Positions 92-8,344 of a stretch of DNA of 32,233 nucleotides are shown one piece after another (position 1 is the first letter of the stretch; each line of letters starts with the position of its first letter). The stretch comes from Labilithrix sp. (GTDB taxonomy: Bacteria > Myxococcota_A > Polyangia > Polyangiales > Polyangiaceae), in NCBI GenBank assembly GCA_044227045.1, contig JBGAFW010000028.1, positions 83,667 through 115,899 of the forward strand, given 5' to 3'. The translations under genes were made by a program, and so were the position numbers. The notes beneath the pieces were generated by a model that was given only the letters and a program-made list of their open reading frames with translations, had not been told where the DNA came from and made no database searches.

Positions 92-1642
92 TTACTGCGC
101 GGCGGTCGTGATCGAGAGGAACATCTTCGGCGGGAGGTCGCCGCAGAGGACCGTGCCACCTTGAACGGTCAGCTGGATGTCTCCGAGGTACTGCGTGAGC
201 CCGGTGCTCGGAGCCTTCATGTCGACGTTGCCGACGATGGGCGTGAGGGGGACGACGTTGCCGTTCGAGAGGTTGATCTTGAACGCGTCGGCAGGCGTCC
301 CAACGCGCGGCGCGACGCTCGCGATGTAGGCCGCGGGTTGGTTTCCGTTGTTGATGATCTTCCACGGCTTCGAGACGGTCTGTCCCCAGCCCGTTCCGCC
401 GACGTTCGGGACGTCGATCAACGTCGGATCGAGCACGAGGATCGCGCCGCGTGCCGTCTCCTTCAAGGTCACGAGGTGCGGCTGATCGCCAGGCGCCGTC
501 GACGTGATGCGGAGGACATCGTCGTAGAAGCCGTTCGTCGTGGGTGACGGGAACGGGACGGTCTTCGGGATGACGCGGAGCTTGTATTGCGAGGCAGCCG
601 CCATCGGGATGGCGACGCCTGGCGTGAGCGCGGCGCCGTTGGCGTCGTTCGCGAGCGTGTAGGGTGACGTTCCTGCTTCGCCCTTCTCGAGGACCGGCGT
701 GAACTCCATCGCGGCGGTGCTCGTGACGGTGACGACCTGGTATTGCACGCTCGTCCCGCAGTCGACCTGCCCGAAGTTCACCGTGCCGGGCGATACGCCG
801 ACGGACGTGGTGCCGTGACCCTTCAGGTTCGTGTTCACCGGCGGCGTCTTGCAATGCACCGCGGAGGAGTTGAACGAGAGCGCGAGCGTGTCGGTGTAAT
901 CGACGGTGTTGGCCGAGATCATCCCGAGCGTCTTCGAGACCGTGTCGGCCGGCGCGAGCTTCACCGTCGCCGTGTCGAGGTTGTCGATCTTGAAGTTCTG
1001 GCTTCCGAGGTTGAGCGTCGCCGTGACCTCGAGGTTGCCCGAGTTCGTGAGGCTGAATGGGATCGTGCCCGTCGTTCCGACCTTCACGTCGCCGAAGTCG
1101 TAGAGCTCCTTCAACGTCGAGCTGATGATCGCCCCGCGCGCGGTCTGGTGGAGGCGCACGACGAGCGGCGGCGCGCCATCCGCCGTCTGGATCTCGAGCG
1201 TGCCCGCGTAGAGATCGGGCGCGATGTCGGAGGTCTGCGGGATGGGCTCTGGGATGATCTGGATGTTGGCCTCGCCCTTCGCGGGGATGCCGCCTTCCTT
1301 CGGGTTCAGCTTGAAGTACTTCTCGCCCGCGGTGAACGCCGCCTTGAAGTTGATGATGTCAGGTCGCGGGTTCTTGAGCGTGATCACCTTCTCGGGCGCC
1401 TGCGCTCCACAGTTCACGAAGCCGTTGTCGCCAAGCAGGATGCCCTTCTCGTCGACCGCCGGGCTGATCGTGACCGCGCTGCCGTTGGTGGCGGAGTCAT
1501 TGACCGCCGCGTCGATCGGATCGTCCGCAGCCGCGGGCGGACGCTCTCCCGAACCGCTGCAGTTGGCGAGCGCTGCGACGCCGCAAACGACGGCGACGAC
1601 CTGAATGGAGTACACGAGCCCACGAACGTGGCTTCGCTTCAT
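92..1642 (-). CDS. Secreted (possibly lipidated) cell-surface protein built of 4-5 tandem 'choice-of-anchor D'/HYDIN-ASH-like Ig-fold repeats
   Basis: Long minus ORF 92..1663. ATG at 1642 is preceded by GGAGGG 6 nt upstream and gives N-terminus MKRSHVRGLVYSIQVVAVVCGVAALANCSG, a Sec signal peptide. Repeated ~90-aa units contain FG.V.VG / LTNSGN / KIINNGN / ITLKNP motifs typical of choice-of-anchor D domains. TAG stop at 92-94 sits 5 nt from the convergent upstream fragment. Confidence 0.6.
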   Translation of the reverse strand: MKRSHVRGLVYSIQVVAVVCGVAALANCSGSGERPPAAADDPIDAAVNDSATNGSAVTISPAVDEKGILLGDNGFVNCGAQAPEKVITLKNPRPDIINFKAAFTAGEKYFKLNPKEGGIPAKGEANIQIIPEPIPQTSDIAPDLYAGTLEIQTADGAPPLVVRLHQTARGAIISSTLKELYDFGDVKVGTTGTIPFSLTNSGNLEVTATLNLGSQNFKIDNLDTATVKLAPADTVSKTLGMISANTVDYTDTLALSFNSSAVHCKTPPVNTNLKGHGTTSVGVSPGTVNFGQVDCGTSVQYQVVTVTSTAAMEFTPVLEKGEAGTSPYTLANDANGAALTPGVAIPMAAASQYKLRVIPKTVPFPSPTTNGFYDDVLRITSTAPGDQPHLVTLKETARGAILVLDPTLIDVPNVGGTGWGQTVSKPWKIINNGNQPAAYIASVAPRVGTPADAFKINLSNGNVVPLTPIVGNVDMKAPSTGLTQYLGDIQLTVQGGTVLCGDLPPKMFLSITTAAQ

Positions 1643-2052
1643 ACGACCCTCCGGAACAAGCAAATCAATTCAAATACGAAGCTCGCGTGACCTGACTCGT
1701 CGATCCTGTGAGAGCCGTCATAGCGAGCCGCGCGTAAACCAGGCTATCGACTGTGACAAGACGGCGCAAGTTGACCAACCATTCACTTCTTCTCTCCGGT
1801 GGACAGCCCGCGCTTTGCGGCAAGCGCGTGCAGGTGCTGTCCCACCTCGTGCGTGCGTCGTCGCGCGCGCGCAGCAAGGTGGGCCGTCGCGCTTGGTGCG
1901 CGGTTGGTGCGCGTTCCGTGACGCAGGCGTTCTTCGATTCCCCGCGTCAGCGGCAGCGCCACTTATGTAGGAGCGAGCGGGTTCTCGCCGGGATCCGAGC
2001 CTCCTTCATCTCGCGGCGGCACGGCATGGTTGGTGCGAACGCGCCACGCTCC

Positions 2053-3255
2053 ATGAAGCTCGGTCTGTCGCCTGTTCTCCTCTCGACCCTCGCGCTGTCG
2101 TCTTCCCTCCTCTTCGGCGTCGGTCTTGGGGGATGTGGCGACTCAGACGAACCGGGATACTTCGAGTCGACGAACGGGACCTCGCCCGGTCAGCGCGGCG
2201 CCGACCCCACCGGCGGTCCGGCAGGCGGCGGTGGTGACGGCGGGACAGGTGCAGCGTCCTCCTCTTCTTCTTCGTCGTCCTCCTCGTCGTCTGGGTCGGG
2301 TGGTCCGAGCGCGAAGTGCACGCAGGGGACGAAGTCGTACGGCACGATGAAGTCGTGGGAGTGCGTTCCTTCGGGCGCGCCGGCGAAGGCTGGGCTCGTC
2401 GTCGCGCTTCACGGCTACACGCAAGGCGTCGAGCAAGGTGGAACGAACGGCGCTCCGTGGGGCTTCAAGCCGACGTCGCAGTGGGACGTGCTCGCGGAGA
2501 AGCACAAGTTCTACGTCCTCTACCCTGACCACGGGACGTCCGCGTTCAGCTGGTATGCGTTCTACGGCACGAGCGGGATCGGTCGCACCGATCTCGAGCC
2601 GACGAACATCGCTCAGATGGTGAAAGACTTCATGGCGACGCACGACGTCGACCCGAACAAGGTCTTCATCAACGGTCTCTCCGCCGGTGCGTACATGGCC
2701 GTCGTGATGCTCGCGACGTACCCCGATCTGTTCGCGGGCGGGTCCACGTTCGCGGGCGGCGCGTACGGCTGCTCGACCTCATGCGCCGCGCTCGGCAAGA
2801 AGGGCAGCGGCTGGACGTGGCCGGGTAATCACTCCTCGAGCCTCGTCAAGCAGGCATACGCGACGGTGTGGAACGACGCGAACGCGCGGAAGCCGAAGCT
2901 CCTCATCTTCCAAGGCGACGCCGACGGCGCCGTCACGCCCGAGAACCTCGCCGACCTTACCCAACAATGGAACGGCGCGCTCGGCATCACCGGCGCGGGC
3001 AAGACGAGCACGCTCAAAGGACACGCCTATACCGAATACGACAGGAACGGCACCGTCATGCTCGCGAGCGTGACGATGAAGGGCATTGGCCACGGCACGC
3101 CGGTGGATCCTGGCGCAGGCGCCGATCAGGGCGGCTGGGATCCGGAGCCGAGCCAAACGATGAAGAACGACCAGAACGCGACGCAGGACTGGACGAACAG
3201 CACAGGCATTTATGGCCCTTACTACTCTGCAAAGTTCTGGGGCCTGATTCCCTGA
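2053..3255 (+). CDS. Extracellular esterase of the PHB-depolymerase/LpqC alpha/beta-hydrolase family, lipoprotein with poly-Ser linker
   Basis: ORF is open from 1753, but the first credible start is ATG 2053 (MKLGLSPVLLSTLALSSSLLFGVGLGGCGD, signal peptide plus lipobox-like LGGC), or ATG 2026. The run of 12 Ser (S12) is a linker. Motifs VVALHGYTQG, nucleophile elbow GLSAGAY and FQGDADGAV(TP) match esterase/PHB depolymerase family proteins. Confidence 0.7.
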   Translation: MKLGLSPVLLSTLALSSSLLFGVGLGGCGDSDEPGYFESTNGTSPGQRGADPTGGPAGGGGDGGTGAASSSSSSSSSSSSGSGGPSAKCTQGTKSYGTMKSWECVPSGAPAKAGLVVALHGYTQGVEQGGTNGAPWGFKPTSQWDVLAEKHKFYVLYPDHGTSAFSWYAFYGTSGIGRTDLEPTNIAQMVKDFMATHDVDPNKVFINGLSAGAYMAVVMLATYPDLFAGGSTFAGGAYGCSTSCAALGKKGSGWTWPGNHSSSLVKQAYATVWNDANARKPKLLIFQGDADGAVTPENLADLTQQWNGALGITGAGKTSTLKGHAYTEYDRNGTVMLASVTMKGIGHGTPVDPGAGADQGGWDPEPSQTMKNDQNATQDWTNSTGIYGPYYSAKFWGLIP

Positions 3256-3317: not shown

Positions 3318-5207
3318 CTACTCTCCAGGTGGGCTGAATGCGAACGGCACGTTCGTCGAGGTGGGGCCGTCGGAGCGCGGAAACGTCAGGGTCGAAATGA
3401 TCTGCGCGACGCAGGCGCTGACGGCCCTGTTGGGCATCGACCCAGACACGACGGGACCCCGTACAGTTCCATCGGGCTCGATCACGAAGCTCGTCGTCAC
3501 AGTCCCCTTGAGCGTCGGATCTTTTCGACGGGCCGTCTCGTAGCAGGCGTCGATCCGCGGACGTGCGCGGTTGATCACACGTTGGATGTCCTCGGTGGTG
3601 AGCCGTCGAGCATGTGGTGGATCCGACAGATGATTGGGAGGCGACGTGACTGGGCGGAGTGGCGTCGGTGACCGCGGGGGCTCGAGCGGCTTCGTCTCAT
3701 CGTACGCGACGGGCGGCGGCGCCATCGGGGGGCGCGCCGGCGGGCCTGGCAAGTCGTCGCTCGCGAGCGGGGGTGGTGGAAGCGATGTGAGCGACGGAGG
3801 AGGAGGTGGGACGTTCGCGATTGGCTTCGGCGACCACGGTCCGATCAAGAGAAACGCGCCGAGCCCCATCACGAGCACGCTCACTGCGGTGACGATCGAG
3901 CCTTTAACCTTCGCGCTCACAGGAGGCGCTTCCCGCGGCGTGTCTGGCGAGGCCTCTCGTCGTAGAGCGGGCAGCTGATCTCTCGGTGACGTGTCGACCA
4001 GCCCCGTCTCCTCCGCTATGGGCGGCGGCGGAGCGGTCGGCACGTCTGGGTTTGGCCCGAATACGAGCGGGATCGTGTCGTGGCTCGCGAGCCGCTCGGA
4101 CCCCGCGTCGACGATTTGTTTGGCGCCGATGGCCTCGTCGCGGAGCGTGCTCGGTGGGGAGTCAGCCTCGGTCGCGCTCGGAACGGGCGACGCCTTGGCG
4201 ATCGGCTTCATCGCGACCGTGGGTGCGGTCGGATCGACCGGCGCAGGAGCCGTATCCGGAGGCAGCGTGACGTCGGGGATCGGGACCGCGTCGAGCTTCA
4301 AGACCGGATCGAGCAGCCGCCACGCTTCGCGCGCGTTCGGCGGGCGCTTCGCCGCGTCCCGATCGAGGCACTGCGCGAGCCATTCGTCGAAGCCGGCAGG
4401 GATCGTGAACGCGCGCCCGAGCTCACGCGCGCGATCGGACGCGGTCGGGATCGGATCGAGGACGATCTCGCGCATCAGCTCGGCCATCGACGCGTCTTCG
4501 GAGGCCGAGCGCCAAAACGACCGCCCGGTGAGCACGTAGAACGCGATCAAGCCGAGCGCCCAGACATCCGCGGCAGGGAGGATCGCCGATCGACGCGTCT
4601 GCTCTGGCGCCATCCAGATCGGTGAGCCCATCGCCGCGGTGCTCTTCGCGCCCGCCTCCGCGGTGAGCTTCGCGATGCCGAAGTCGAGGAGCTTCACGTG
4701 CACGAGCGCGCTCCGCTTGGGGTCGCCCTCGGCCGCGGCTCCAGCGCGCTTTGGCGTCGCGATGAACACGTTCTCGGGCTTCAGATCGCGATGCACGATG
4801 CCGGCGGCGTGCGCTTCCCCTAAGCCATGGCAAAGCTGCTCGAAGATCCGACGCGCTTCGCCGGCGCGCAGCGCGCCCTTCGCGGTGACGTACTGATCGA
4901 GATCCTGACCGGTGAGGAGCTCCATCACGAGGAACGGCAAGCCTGAGTCCGCGTCGACGCCCGCCGCATGCACCTCCACGATGTGCTCGCTCTCGATCTG
5001 CGCGCCGATGCGCGCCTCTTGCTCGAAGCGACGGCGCAGATCCGGCTTCGCGACGAGCTGCGGGTGCATGATCTTGAGCGCCCGATGCTTGCCGGTGCTG
5101 ATCTGCTCCACGACGTAGATCGAGCCCATCCCACCGGCGCTGAGCGGCTCGACGATGCGATAGCCCGTCGCGAACACGGAGCCGCTTCGTAGTGCGGTGG
5201 GCTGCAT
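3318..5207 (-). CDS. Bitopic membrane Ser/Thr protein kinase: N-terminal Hanks kinase domain, Pro-rich linker, one TM helix, C-terminal AgmX/PglI-type (TonB-C-like) periplasmic domain
   Basis: ATG at 5207. Hanks kinase motifs are present: glycine-rich loop SAGGMGSIYVV, ALK (VAIK-type Lys), HRDLKPENVF, DFGIAK, GSPIWMAPE. TM helix VTAVSVLVMGLGAFLLIGPW (aa ~437-458) followed by PPPPP tracts. The last ~90 aa (DIQRVINRARPRIDACYE...FVIEPDGTV...ACVAQIISTLTFP) resemble the myxobacterial AgmX/PglI C-terminal domain. Confidence 0.9.
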   Translation of the reverse strand: MQPTALRSGSVFATGYRIVEPLSAGGMGSIYVVEQISTGKHRALKIMHPQLVAKPDLRRRFEQEARIGAQIESEHIVEVHAAGVDADSGLPFLVMELLTGQDLDQYVTAKGALRAGEARRIFEQLCHGLGEAHAAGIVHRDLKPENVFIATPKRAGAAAEGDPKRSALVHVKLLDFGIAKLTAEAGAKSTAAMGSPIWMAPEQTRRSAILPAADVWALGLIAFYVLTGRSFWRSASEDASMAELMREIVLDPIPTASDRARELGRAFTIPAGFDEWLAQCLDRDAAKRPPNAREAWRLLDPVLKLDAVPIPDVTLPPDTAPAPVDPTAPTVAMKPIAKASPVPSATEADSPPSTLRDEAIGAKQIVDAGSERLASHDTIPLVFGPNPDVPTAPPPPIAEETGLVDTSPRDQLPALRREASPDTPREAPPVSAKVKGSIVTAVSVLVMGLGAFLLIGPWSPKPIANVPPPPPSLTSLPPPPLASDDLPGPPARPPMAPPPVAYDETKPLEPPRSPTPLRPVTSPPNHLSDPPHARRLTTEDIQRVINRARPRIDACYETARRKDPTLKGTVTTSFVIEPDGTVRGPVVSGSMPNRAVSACVAQIISTLTFPRSDGPTSTNVPFAFSPPGE

Positions 5208-5230: not shown

Positions 5231-6136
5231 CTACGCCGTGAACGCGGTCAGCATCTCCTTCGCCCCGTATTTACCCTTCGGATCGCGCTCGATCCGCGAG
5301 GCGGCGGTGCTCGGGTCGTGGGTGTAAAACGCCCACCCCTCCTCGGAGAGGATGCGATCGAGGAGCTTCTTCTTCTCGTCGATGAGCAGCTCCGGATAGC
5401 GGTCGTAGCCCATCGTGATCGGCAGGTGCACCCACGGCACGCCCGGGACGAGGTCGCCGAGGAACGTGATCGGGCCTTTTCGCCAACCCTCGACGCGCGT
5501 GAGCATGAGACCTGGCGTGTGCCCCTCCGAGATCGTGAACGAGTAAGCGTCACCGAGGAGCGCGCTCTTGCCCGCGATGCCTTCGTGCGTCTTCACGATC
5601 TCGAGGCGACCCGTCGCCTCGAGCAAGCCTTGCAGCTCGGGGATGAACGACGCCCGGTCGCGCGCATGCGGGGCGTTCGCGCGCTTCCACGCCAGATCGC
5701 TCACGACATACGACGCGTTCGGAAACGCGAGCGCGGGCGCCGCCCCTTCTCTCCACGCCGTCAGGAGACCACCGGCATGATCGAAGTGGAGATGCGAGAG
5801 GACGATGACATGGATGTCGCTGGGCGCGAGCCCAGCCTTCGCGAGCGAGTCGATGAGCACGTGGCGGTCTTCCTGCACGCCGAAGCGCTCGCGCATCTTC
5901 GGCTCGAAGAACGCGCCGATGCCCGCCTCGAGCAGGACGTTGCGCTTCTTCGGCTGGCTCTCTCGAACGAGCAGCGCCCGGCACGCGAGCGTGATGCGAT
6001 GTCGATCGTCCGGCGGCGCCCACTTCTCCCAGACCGGGCGCGGACAGTTGCCAAACATCGCGCCTCCGTCGAGACGCTGCGTGTTGCCTTCGATCGCGAC
6101 GAGCTCGACGTTGCCGGGCTTCTCCATGCTCACCAT
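5231..6136 (-). CDS. MBL-fold metallo-hydrolase (lactonase/AttM-AiiA-like beta-lactamase superfamily)
   Basis: 301-aa ORF with the HxHxDH zinc motif ([11 protein letters not shown]) and downstream His/Asp ligands. It sits 23 nt upstream of the kinase gene on the same strand and is probably co-transcribed with it. Confidence 0.8.
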
Positions 6137-6194: not shown

Positions 6195-6923
6195 TCAGTA
6201 GCAGCCGACCTGGCCGCCCTTGATCTGGCACTTCTCCTTCGACTTGCACTTCTCTTCGATTTCGAACTTCTTCGAACGGCACTTCAAGATCGCGCGCTCG
6301 TCGGCGGAGCAAGAGAAGTGCTCTTCCTTCTCGCATGCGTCGCCTTGGTTTGCGACGGAGTCGTCGCACTCGACCTTGAACCCCTGCTCTTTCGAGCCGG
6401 TGACGCGGCAGCCCTTCGGCCCCTTGCAGAGGCTCGCCTGCGTGAACTTACCGCCACGGCAAGCGAGCGCCGCCTTCTTGTCGACGGTGCACGCGTAGTC
6501 TTCTTCTTCACGGCAGGCGTCGCCGGGGTTGGCCACGCTGTTGTCGCAGGTGACCTTCTTCTTCTCCATCACGCACGAACGCTCACCGAGGCAGCTCTGC
6601 ACGAGCGTCCACTTGTTCTTCGTGCACTGGAGCATGCCCTTCTTGTCGCTCGTGCACACGTAGTCGTCGACGAGGTTGCAGACGTCTTTGTCCTCGGCGA
6701 CGCTCTGGTCGCACGCGTGCTCGCCGGACGCCTTCGAGCAGCCGTCGGGGCCTTTGCAGGACATCTCTTCCCACTTGCCGTCGTGGCAGGCGAGCGCCTT
6801 CTTGTCCTCGACGCAGAGCTCCTTCGTCTCGATTTTGCAGCTTCCACCAGCCTTCGGCTTGCAGCCAATACCGGCGCCAGCGAGACCAAGAAGAAAGACT
6901 AGGAGGAGAGCCCCACGCTTCAT
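6195..6923 (-). CDS. Secreted Cys-rich lipoprotein composed of four tandem ~55-aa cysteine-rich repeats (unassigned family)
   Basis: ATG 6923. MKRGALLLVFLLGLAGAGIGCKP is a signal peptide with a classical lipobox (AGIGC). Four repeats share the pattern C-D-x-S-V-A-x-x-G-D-x-C-x-x-E-E-x-[YF]-x-C-[TS]-x-D-[KE]-[KR]-x-x-L-x-C-x-x-x-K-[WF]-x-x-x-x-x-C-x-G-x-x-x-C, with about 28 Cys in total. Confidence 0.65.
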   Translation of the reverse strand: MKRGALLLVFLLGLAGAGIGCKPKAGGSCKIETKELCVEDKKALACHDGKWEEMSCKGPDGCSKASGEHACDQSVAEDKDVCNLVDDYVCTSDKKGMLQCTKNKWTLVQSCLGERSCVMEKKKVTCDNSVANPGDACREEEDYACTVDKKAALACRGGKFTQASLCKGPKGCRVTGSKEQGFKVECDDSVANQGDACEKEEHFSCSADERAILKCRSKKFEIEEKCKSKEKCQIKGGQVGCY

Positions 6924-7120: not shown

Positions 7121-8344
7121 TCACGAGCGCCGGACGCGCGCCGGGACGCGCTCGAGGTCGCCCTCGGGGGCGGCGCGCGGCGTGTTGTCTTCGAGCAGCG
7201 TCGCGTACGTGATGAGCGACTTGTTGTCGAAGCGCTCCCTCGCGCGAAGGAGGACGCTCTCGACGTTGCGACGTCGCTCCTGCTCGCGATCGCGAAAGAG
7301 CGCGGCCTGCGCGCCTCGAGCCGGCCCGAGGTCCTGCACCGAGACGCCCGTGAGTCGAACGCGCGCGGAGGCGTCGAGCGGAAAGCGATCGAGCAGCGTG
7401 AGGCAGGCGTCGTGGAGCGTGCGCGTGTCGTTCGCGGGTGACGGGAGCACCATCCGACGCGTGAGGAGCGTGAAGTCGTGCAGCTTCAGCTTCACCACGA
7501 CGGCACGCGCGGCGATTCCCGCGGCAGTGAGTCGCTCGGCGACGCGCGACGCATGCGCCAGGAGCGTCCGCGCGATGCTCTCCCGCGTGGTGAGGTCGAC
7601 GTCGTAGGTGCACTCGGCCCCGATCGACTTGGCTTCGCGATCGGGGACGACGTCGCGCGGATCGATGCCGCGCGCGAGCTCGGAGACCTCCGGTCCCCAC
7701 TTGCCGAGCGCGCGCTCGAGCGCAGCGGGCTCTGCCTTCGCGAGATCGCCGAGCGTCTTGTAGCCAAGCGCGCGAAGCGACGGCGCCGTCTTCGGCCCGA
7801 TGCCCCACATGCGCTCGATCGGGAGCGGCGCGAGGAACGCGCCGACGTCTCCGCTGACGACGGTGAGGCCGTTCGGCTTGTCCATGTCGCTCGCGATCTT
7901 CGCGACGAACTTGCTCGAGGCGACGCCCGCCGAGCATGTCAGCTTCGTCGCCTCGTAGACGTCCTTCTTGATCAGGGCGGCGATCGTAGCGCCGTCGCCG
8001 AAGAGGCTCCTCGAGCCGGTCACGTCGAGGAATGCTTCGTCGATCGAGAGGCCTTCGACGAGCGGCGTGTACTTGTGGAACACGTCGAAGACCTGACCGC
8101 TCACCTCTCCGTAGCGATCACCACGCGGAGGTACGACGACCAGCCGCGGACACCGCCGGAGCGCCTCCGCCATCGGCATCGCGGAGCGGACACCGTACTC
8201 GCGCGCGGCGTACGAGGCGGCCGCGACGACGCCTCGCCGGCTCGCACCTCCAACGACGAGCGGCTTGCCGCGAAGCTCCGGATTGTCGCGCTCTTCCACG
8301 GAGGCGAAGAACGCATCCATGTCGACGTGGAGGATTTGACGCAA
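7121..8344 (-). CDS. dinB: DNA polymerase IV (Y-family translesion polymerase)
   Basis: N-terminus (L/M)RQILHVDMDAFFASVEERDNPELRGKPLVVGG aligns residue-for-residue with E. coli DinB MRKIIHVDMDCFFAAVE... TTG start at 8344 has AAGGAG 7 nt upstream. Palm, fingers and little-finger regions are recognisable along the length. Confidence 0.95.
   Translation of the reverse strand: MRQILHVDMDAFFASVEERDNPELRGKPLVVGGASRRGVVAAASYAAREYGVRSAMPMAEALRRCPRLVVVPPRGDRYGEVSGQVFDVFHKYTPLVEGLSIDEAFLDVTGSRSLFGDGATIAALIKKDVYEATKLTCSAGVASSKFVAKIASDMDKPNGLTVVSGDVGAFLAPLPIERMWGIGPKTAPSLRALGYKTLGDLAKAEPAALERALGKWGPEVSELARGIDPRDVVPDREAKSIGAECTYDVDLTTRESIARTLLAHASRVAERLTAAGIAARAVVVKLKLHDFTLLTRRMVLPSPANDTRTLHDACLTLLDRFPLDASARVRLTGVSVQDLGPARGAQAALFRDREQERRRNVESVLLRARERFDNKSLITYATLLEDNTPRAAPEGDLERVPARVRRS

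Follow-up and report, generated by a model that had tools for sequence, protein, structure and literature searches.

The nearest known system to the protein described here is the fungal bubble-protein family (PF09227/DUF1962/IPR015308), which includes bubble protein from P. brevicompactum (PDB 1UOY) and PAFC from P. chrysogenum (PDB 6TRM). Bubble protein and PAFC contain eight cysteines, paired 3-30, 18-38, 28-54 and 49-64 in the pattern abcabdcd (PMC7865535), and a 2026 PSI-BLAST survey placed the family “exclusively in fungi” (PMC13525654). The named proteins returned when the bubble-protein sequence was used as a query in this work were also all fungal. The gene analyzed here encodes a cysteine-rich lipoprotein at positions 6195 to 6923 of a stretch of Labilithrix sp. 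DNA (contig JBGAFW010000028.1); the whole stretch, referred to as the window, is 32,233 bases long and has a G+C content of 62-72%. An initial annotation of the window, made from the sequence alone, described the protein as a lipoprotein built from four copies of an undescribed repeat. Our results indicate that the repeated unit is very probably a remote bacterial homologue of the bubble protein/PAFC fold (PF09227) and not a new fold. The gene and its parts are as follows.

6195 to 6923, minus strand: complete lipoprotein coding sequence of 242 amino acids, with its stop codon at 6195-6197 (open reading frame list, 175 homologues, ratio of non-synonymous to synonymous substitution rates (dN/dS), AlphaFold2 model)
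6861 to 6923, minus strand: predicted type II signal peptide (residues 1-20) and lipobox Cys21, followed by Lys at position +2 (C-K-P-K), read from the sequence
6711 to 6860, minus strand: unit 1, residues 22-71, with a seven-residue tether (KPKAGGS) and Cys 29, 37, 46, 56, 62 and 71; 48.6 bits with the hidden Markov model (HMM) of the unit
6546 to 6710, minus strand: unit 2, residues 72-126, with the arm DQSVAEDKDV and Cys 82, 90, 100, 111, 117 and 126; unit HMM 71.6 bits; aligns with PAFC residues 21-55
6366 to 6545, minus strand: unit 3, residues 127-186, with the arm DNSVANPGDA and Cys 137, 145, 155, 166, 172 and 186
6198 to 6365, minus strand: unit 4, residues 187-242, with the arm DDSVANQGDA, Cys 197, 205, 215, 226, 232 and 241 and a terminal Tyr; unit HMM 65.9 bits

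The N-terminus (MKRGALLLVFLLGLAGAGIGC) runs from a basic n-region through a hydrophobic core to a lipobox-type cysteine, Cys21. Its layout, MKR-GALLLVFLLGLAGAG-IG-C21, is that of a type II signal peptide as far as sequence can tell, and of 120 homologues, 116 carry a lipobox-like motif. The lipoprotein assignment of the initial annotation is therefore retained as a prediction, read from the signal peptide and Cys21. The protein contains 25 cysteines, namely Cys21 and 24 in the repeat units, and all 25 are unchanged across 45 orthologues. Homologues of the gene number 175; most of the 120 matches listed are about 240 amino acids long, and every named database copy of the protein is labelled “hypothetical protein.” Comparison with close orthologues gave dN/dS values of 0.14-0.25, which indicates purifying selection. 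Long open reading frames on the opposite strand overlap the gene, for example one of 194 amino acids at 6318-6902 (plus strand), as is the usual artefact in DNA of high G+C content; the minus-strand frame is favoured because of its conservation among homologues and its dN/dS values. It is strongly supported that the mature part of the protein consists of four tandem disulfide-rich modules and nothing else, behind the predicted lipoprotein signal, and that the chain is non-enzymatic.

The four tandem copies reported initially were confirmed, and each was found to hold exactly six cysteines. Each module is 50-60 amino acids in size and consists of an arm followed by C1 to C6, with successive cysteine spacings of 8, 8-10, 10-11, 6 and 9-14 residues. 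A conserved arm of 10 residues, D-x-S-[VI]-A-x-x-G-D-x, connects consecutive units. The consensus motif first proposed for the repeat captured the repetition itself; its register was wrong, since it opened on the last cysteine of the preceding unit. Unit 1 had seemed incomplete because the motif began one cysteine too early, and in the six-cysteine register it is whole. Nor is the repeat “sharply conserved,” as it had been called. The units are only 27-51% identical to one another, and a relaxed form of the motif (G/K before the first D, D/E in the acidic pair and G/S after the fifth Cys) was found in units 3 and 4 only.

At the level of protein sequence, the repetition is well above chance. 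BLASTP comparisons between units gave E values (expect values) from 4e-6 to 2e-18, and three unit pairs were still significant when all cysteines were masked. Tandem Repeats Finder identified no long-period repeat in the DNA, and the duplication of the units is therefore ancient. The sole tandem repeat at the DNA level in the gene lies at 6228-6271 in unit 4 (18 bp, 2.4 copies, 85% match), where it codes for KCKSKEKC; it probably arises from the Lys/Glu-rich codon usage there. Among 120 orthologues conservation is distributed across all four units, and the entropy of the tether and inter-unit arms is 0.76-0.98 bits, compared with 1.12-1.23 bits in the domain cores. The greater conservation of the linkers than of the cores suggests a rigid array with a fixed geometry.

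Several profile comparisons relate the unit to bubble protein. First, the whole protein matched the Pfam Bubble family (PF09227) with 24.1 bits (E 4.4e-5), summed over two to three units, where the Pfam gathering cut-off is 23 bits. The whole protein passes this cut-off because several units add up; single units scored 20.4 bits (unit 2) and 16.7 bits (unit 3), units 1 and 4 gave no match to Bubble, and unit 4 scanned singly had no Pfam match whatever. Matches to Bubble at E<=1 were found in 41 of the 45 orthologues, the best with an E value of 2.3e-7. Secondly, a profile built from 76 units was searched against 177,635 distinct PDB sequences. PAFC (6TRM) ranked first (E 0.001) and bubble protein (1UOY) ranked second (E 0.019), while HIV gp120 in third place (E 0.3) is noise. 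Third, hhalign aligned the units with an alignment of 46 fungal bubble proteins at a probability of 92.9% (E 3.7e-7); with 96 divergent units of the wider family the probability was 91.8% over 43 columns, and unit Cys 1-5 were placed on bubble-protein Cys 18, 28, 38, 49 and 54. Lastly, a local profile comparison with the mature bubble region scored 30.8, and 200 column-shuffled versions with preserved cysteine content scored 9.8 +/- 2.1 with a maximum of 16.7, so that the real score lies about 10 standard deviations above the shuffled ones.

The term “undescribed” used for the module in the initial annotation thus holds in part. The NCBIfam/TIGRFAM collections contain no model for it and each unit by itself stays below the Pfam cut-off; the PF09227 score of the whole protein and the fold match described below speak against the term. 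In the formal sense, the significant hit to an existing Pfam family that had been named as the finding that would refute novelty exists. The exclusions made at that time were sound. The Myxococcus cysteine-rich repeat was not recovered, as the NCBIfam scan returned no family at E<=10, and EGF and TNFR gave no Pfam match better than E 0.3; the stray matches obtained (E 0.3-0.6) concerned one protein out of 45 and two units out of 76. A word-indexed homologue search with 96 diverse units gave no significant match, and CBM14/peritrophin-A chitin-binding domains (Der p 23, Blo t 12, the CBM14 of chitotriosidase, Avr4, tachycitin), which are among the nearest known systems, gave neither a profile match nor a fold match. 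The Myxococcus cysteine-rich repeat, EGF, TNFR and inhibitor families were all rejected as identities for the unit because no profile matched any of them.

The structural models agree with the profile results. AlphaFold2 gave a predicted local distance difference test score (pLDDT) of 88 and a predicted template-modelling score (pTM) of 0.70 for the full protein, and a pLDDT of 88.6 for a single unit. Each modelled unit is all-beta and has an extended arm followed by five strands, as described for PAFC, and the N-terminal arm and two small antiparallel beta-sheets that characterize the bubble fold are present in the modelled units. In Foldseek searches only 1UOY and 6TRM were returned at a probability of 1.00 (template-modelling score 0.65-0.70), and the runner-up had a probability of 0.10.

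The bacterial unit and bubble protein differ in one disulfide. The eight cysteines and four disulfides of the bubble family are not found in the units, which have six cysteines each; equivalents of bubble Cys3 and Cys30 are absent and the remaining positions align. The disulfides predicted for the unit from this alignment are C1-C3, C2-C5 and C4-C6, and we infer them with the support of a natural variant, unit 1 of protein P0270, in which exactly C2 and C5 were lost together, in agreement with a C2-C5 pair. Metal binding, an option raised in the initial annotation, could be considered from the cysteine content, which is 11% of the mature protein. It is unlikely, since five of the six cysteines align with disulfide-bonded cysteines of bubble protein and the cysteine count follows 6n+1.

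It could also be argued that the unit is an independent, new disulfide-rich beta-hairpin module that converged with bubble protein, and that the motif C-x-x-D...L-x-C-x-x-G-K-[WF]...C is common to both by chance or structural necessity. The single units fall below the Pfam cut-off, the E values of the best PDB sequence match and of the Foldseek matches to the bubble-family structures (about 0.01) are modest, one disulfide differs and the taxa are as far apart as bacteria and fungi. However, two bubble-family structures hold the first two ranks among all PDB sequences searched and are the sole confident fold matches, the profile score clearly exceeds that of cysteine-preserving shuffles and five cysteines are in register. 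Convergence is therefore considered unlikely, and homology with the bubble protein/PAFC fold is the reading followed below.

The unit profile was also run with HMMER, exhaustively, against 1.84 billion representative proteins (clusters at 50% identity). This search identified 917 family representatives at E<=1e-3, 559 at E<=1e-10 and 130 at E<=1e-30. The best 150 representatives have 2-8 units, most with a lipobox, and their cysteine counts are typically 19, 25 or 31 (6n+1), as expected for paired cysteines and one lipidated cysteine. Across the wider family only Cys, Gly and Asp are conserved. Several distant members had no Pfam hit at all, and existing models therefore do not cover the family. 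Four architectures were recognized.

Architecture (a): lipoprotein with 3-8 units; the commonest
Architecture (b): cytoplasmic region of about 200 amino acids with several CxxC pairs, one transmembrane helix and 4-5 units (P0228, P0248, P0257, P0137)
Architecture (c): alpha/beta-hydrolase domain, several membrane helices and 5-6 units (P0154, P0254)
Architecture (d): four-unit lipoprotein with a tail of about 100 amino acids rich in Ala, Pro and Lys (P0159, P0170, P0179, P0198, P0262)

In architectures (b) and (c) the layout puts the units outside the cytoplasm, at the outer side of the inner membrane. The layout of architecture (b) resembles that of transmembrane signalling or anti-sigma proteins. 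Its CxxC pairs resemble zinc ribbons, and one source applies the label “RPC12/RpoP,” but no Pfam family matches. The low-complexity tails of architecture (d) end in ...KKK, ...KKP or ...PKK and could be periplasm-spanning or wall-contacting extensions.

A locus scan was made with the full-length alignment as the query against one genome per GTDB species, and it reached mostly orthologues. The scan gave 28 loci, 27 of which are in Labilithrix, Polyangiaceae, “Myxococcales” or metagenome-assembled genomes (MAGs) of unclassified “Proteobacteria.” Among them, the cultured Labilithrix luteola DSM 27648 carries an orthologue with 63% identity (locus L019). The remaining locus is an orthologue fragment at a contig end in a MAG labelled “uncultured Klebsiella sp.” (L031, 112-234, contig CAYZJP010000001.1, 63% G+C); it covers the first ~40 residues (signal peptide, CKPKAGATCKIETKEVC...ALVCHDGK) and is divergent afterwards. 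This contig is probably a chimeric assembly or mis-binned and not a Klebsiella gene.

The location of the protein is suggested by its mature N-terminus, C-K-P-K. In M. xanthus a Lys at position +2 characterizes inner-membrane lipoproteins, and such a signal sequence kept a reporter in the inner membrane (PMC3222651). The window's protein has this residue, and Lys is found at +2 in 106 of 111 orthologues. Taken together, the +2 Lys and architectures (b) and (c) favour a protein that is anchored in the inner membrane and whose array lies in the periplasm.

These features also bear on whether the protein could be an antimicrobial or antifungal effector, surface-exposed or released, whose four defensin-like units attack fungi or other competitors as PAFC and bubble protein do. 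Myxobacteria are soil predators, and the nearest known relatives of the unit in sequence and fold are antifungal proteins. PAFC-type proteins are described as cationic, whereas the mature protein is neutral; its isoelectric point (pI) is 6.9, and each unit carries a net charge between -1 and +1. The lipid anchor with its inner-membrane +2 Lys does not fit an effector, and neither do the related architectures, in which the units follow an inner-membrane helix. In addition, unlike fast-evolving effectors, the gene is under purifying selection, and in Labilithrix/Polyangiaceae it occurs as a syntenic single copy. An effector role is for these reasons quite improbable.

Under an inner-membrane location, the +2 Lys would keep the protein in the inner membrane and the array would project into the periplasm from its seven-residue tether, by analogy with the Myxococcus lipoproteins. 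The rigid array would then work as a whole and may serve, without enzymatic activity, as a multivalent module that binds an envelope component or acts as its spacer. The candidates for this component are a conserved protein of the envelope and a glycan containing N-acetylglucosamine (GlcNAc), of which peptidoglycan is an example. This binding or spacer role is the one we favour, as a tentative choice and a possibility rather than a probability. A hint of glycan binding comes from CBM_19 (PF03427), which matched at E<=1 in 37 of the 45 orthologues (best E 3.3e-7); the window's protein scored 16.1 bits as a whole and 16.7 bits with unit 1 alone, both below the cut-off of 20.1 bits.

The same architecture of tandem, rigid, disulfide-rich and non-enzymatic units would also suit a periplasmic inhibitor of proteases or cell-wall hydrolases, comparable to Kazal-type or lysozyme-inhibitor lipoproteins, and an inhibitor was among the options named initially. 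However, no inhibitor family was matched in the Pfam, PDB sequence or fold searches, no reactive-loop-like motif is conserved throughout the family and there is no protease or hydrolase among the conserved neighbours. We therefore regard an inhibitor as very improbable and retain the binding or spacer array as the preferred role.

The genes surrounding the lipoprotein gene in the window are listed below.

7121 to 8344, minus strand: DinB/Pol IV-type Y-family DNA polymerase, upstream neighbour (Pfam IMS, IMS_HHH, IMS_C)
5231 to 6136, minus strand: metallo-beta-lactamase-fold (MBL) hydrolase, downstream neighbour, 58 bp past the stop codon (Pfam Lactamase_B)
3318 to 5207, minus strand: eukaryotic-type Ser/Thr protein kinase, outside the feature (Pfam Pkinase, E 4e-40)
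1753 to 3255, plus strand: polyhydroxybutyrate (PHB)-depolymerase-like esterase
92 to 1663, minus strand: gene for a HYDIN/ASH-type immunoglobulin (Ig)-domain protein

The DinB gene is the only conserved neighbour. In 28 of 30 related loci, including those whose lipoprotein is as little as 44% identical, it is the immediate upstream gene and has the same orientation; the gap between the two genes is 14 bp in L001, 53 bp in L002 and 197 bp in the window. The arrangement looks like conserved synteny, and co-transcription is possible. Beyond DinB lies a divergently oriented alpha/beta-hydrolase gene. The MBL hydrolase is found downstream in just 8 of the 30 loci. In L001 and L011 the gene order is lipoprotein, MBL hydrolase and HYDIN/ASH-type Ig-domain protein; compared with these loci, the window has a two-gene indel, with the esterase and Ser/Thr kinase genes lying between the MBL hydrolase and Ig-domain genes. 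Between 5100 and 8500, a scan for promoters and terminators yielded no signal above shuffled expectation. The gene contexts of two distant paralogues have no feature in common with one another or with that of the window.

The initial annotation placed the lipoprotein directly upstream of a sensor kinase, and a role as ligand or co-sensor of that kinase was considered. A kinase gene does lie two genes downstream on the same strand. The gene next to the lipoprotein, however, encodes the MBL hydrolase, the kinase is of the Ser/Thr and not the histidine type, and its orthologue was next to the lipoprotein in none of the 30 related loci. A partnership with the kinase, or the alternative of metal binding discussed above, is thus considered highly improbable. 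In the kinase itself, the kinase domain is followed by an extended Pro-rich region, then by a hydrophobic helix (GSIVTAVSVLVMGLGAFLLIG) and a second Pro-rich stretch, and no Pfam family matches its C-terminal ~90 amino acids. From its sequence it looks like a membrane-spanning kinase with an extracytoplasmic domain of no Pfam family.

Taken as a whole, the best explanation is that the protein is a tandem bubble-fold lipoprotein, anchored in the inner membrane and serving as a putative binding array, and we consider this explanation probable. Several points weigh against it. First, the similarity to bubble protein is short, spanning 28-43 columns, and the best single unit scores 20.4 against the required 23 bits; since no single unit reaches the Pfam cut-off, family membership is borderline. 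Secondly, the disulfide pattern is based on the alignment and one variant, as co-loss of cysteines gave one clean case. Third, the +2 Lys rule was established in Myxococcus and not in Labilithrix, and in the wider family Lys is at +2 in 35 of 94 representatives. Fourth, because only Cys, Gly and Asp are conserved in the wider family, no common ligand site is visible. Lastly, the gene context provides no functional clue, as DinB and the MBL hydrolase are functionally unrelated and the contexts of the distant paralogues differ. In our opinion the lipoprotein neither acts as a toxin or metal site nor works with the nearby kinase.

The module is a bacterial variant of the bubble fold, tandem and membrane-anchored with three predicted disulfides, and is the founding observation for a large family without a model in current databases. 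A fold reported from fungi only (PMC13525654) is in this way extended to bacteria, where it is tandem, anchored by a lipid or a helix and held by three disulfides. At least 917 protein clusters (50% identity) have no dedicated model, and a dedicated profile would annotate these “hypothetical proteins.” For researchers of bubble protein and PAFC, the distant relatives offer a means to separate structural from toxic features. For myxobacterial envelope biology, the analysis provides a conserved, single-copy and probably inner-membrane-anchored protein in Labilithrix and Polyangiaceae. The family's size and its evolutionary link to the fungal proteins merit a note and a new profile, and the biological pay-off would depend on a ligand or phenotype. 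A wider proposal, speculative and rather doubtful at present, concerns the bubble fold, which is regarded as an antifungal “defensin” confined to fungi. It may represent a single branch of a much larger bacterial family, whose members are tandem periplasmic modules with three disulfides each. The fungal toxins would then descend from a myxobacterial envelope module or have a common ancestor with it, and horizontal transfer may have been involved. Rigid inner-membrane arrays of 2-8 units would, at a fixed distance from the membrane, bind an envelope polymer, either peptidoglycan or a different one.

Several known systems can be compared with the lipoprotein. The Myxococcus cysteine-rich repeat (TIGR02232) also forms tandem disulfide-rich repeats in a myxobacterial envelope protein; it occurs in, and probably forms, the stalk of the TraA surface receptor. 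Its motif and cysteine pattern differ from those of the lipoprotein, which has neither a head domain nor a MYXO-CTERM tag. The CBM19 domain of fungal chitinases resembles the unit in the central Cys/Trp hairpin region, where the matches are sub-threshold to moderate and cover, out of 61 profile positions, 11-51 when the whole protein is scanned and 17-51 when unit 1 is scanned by itself. The lipoprotein has no attached or adjacent chitinase or glycoside hydrolase. The closest comparison is with bubble protein and PAFC. These are single 64-residue domains derived from a prepro-protein, whereas the bacterial protein has four tandem copies per chain; they are secreted and cationic, whereas the bacterial protein is neutral and predicted to be lipid-anchored. 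The bubble family belongs to ascomycete fungi and the tandem lipoprotein to Labilithrix/Polyangiaceae (Myxococcota), and an antifungal role is not indicated for the latter. The four disulfides formed by eight cysteines in bubble protein and PAFC compare with three predicted disulfides formed by six cysteines in the bacterial unit, which is without the 3-30 pair. Common to both are the motif C-x-x-D-x5-6-[LV]-x-C-x-x-G-K-[WF]-x5-C and five cysteines in register, which imply three common disulfides.

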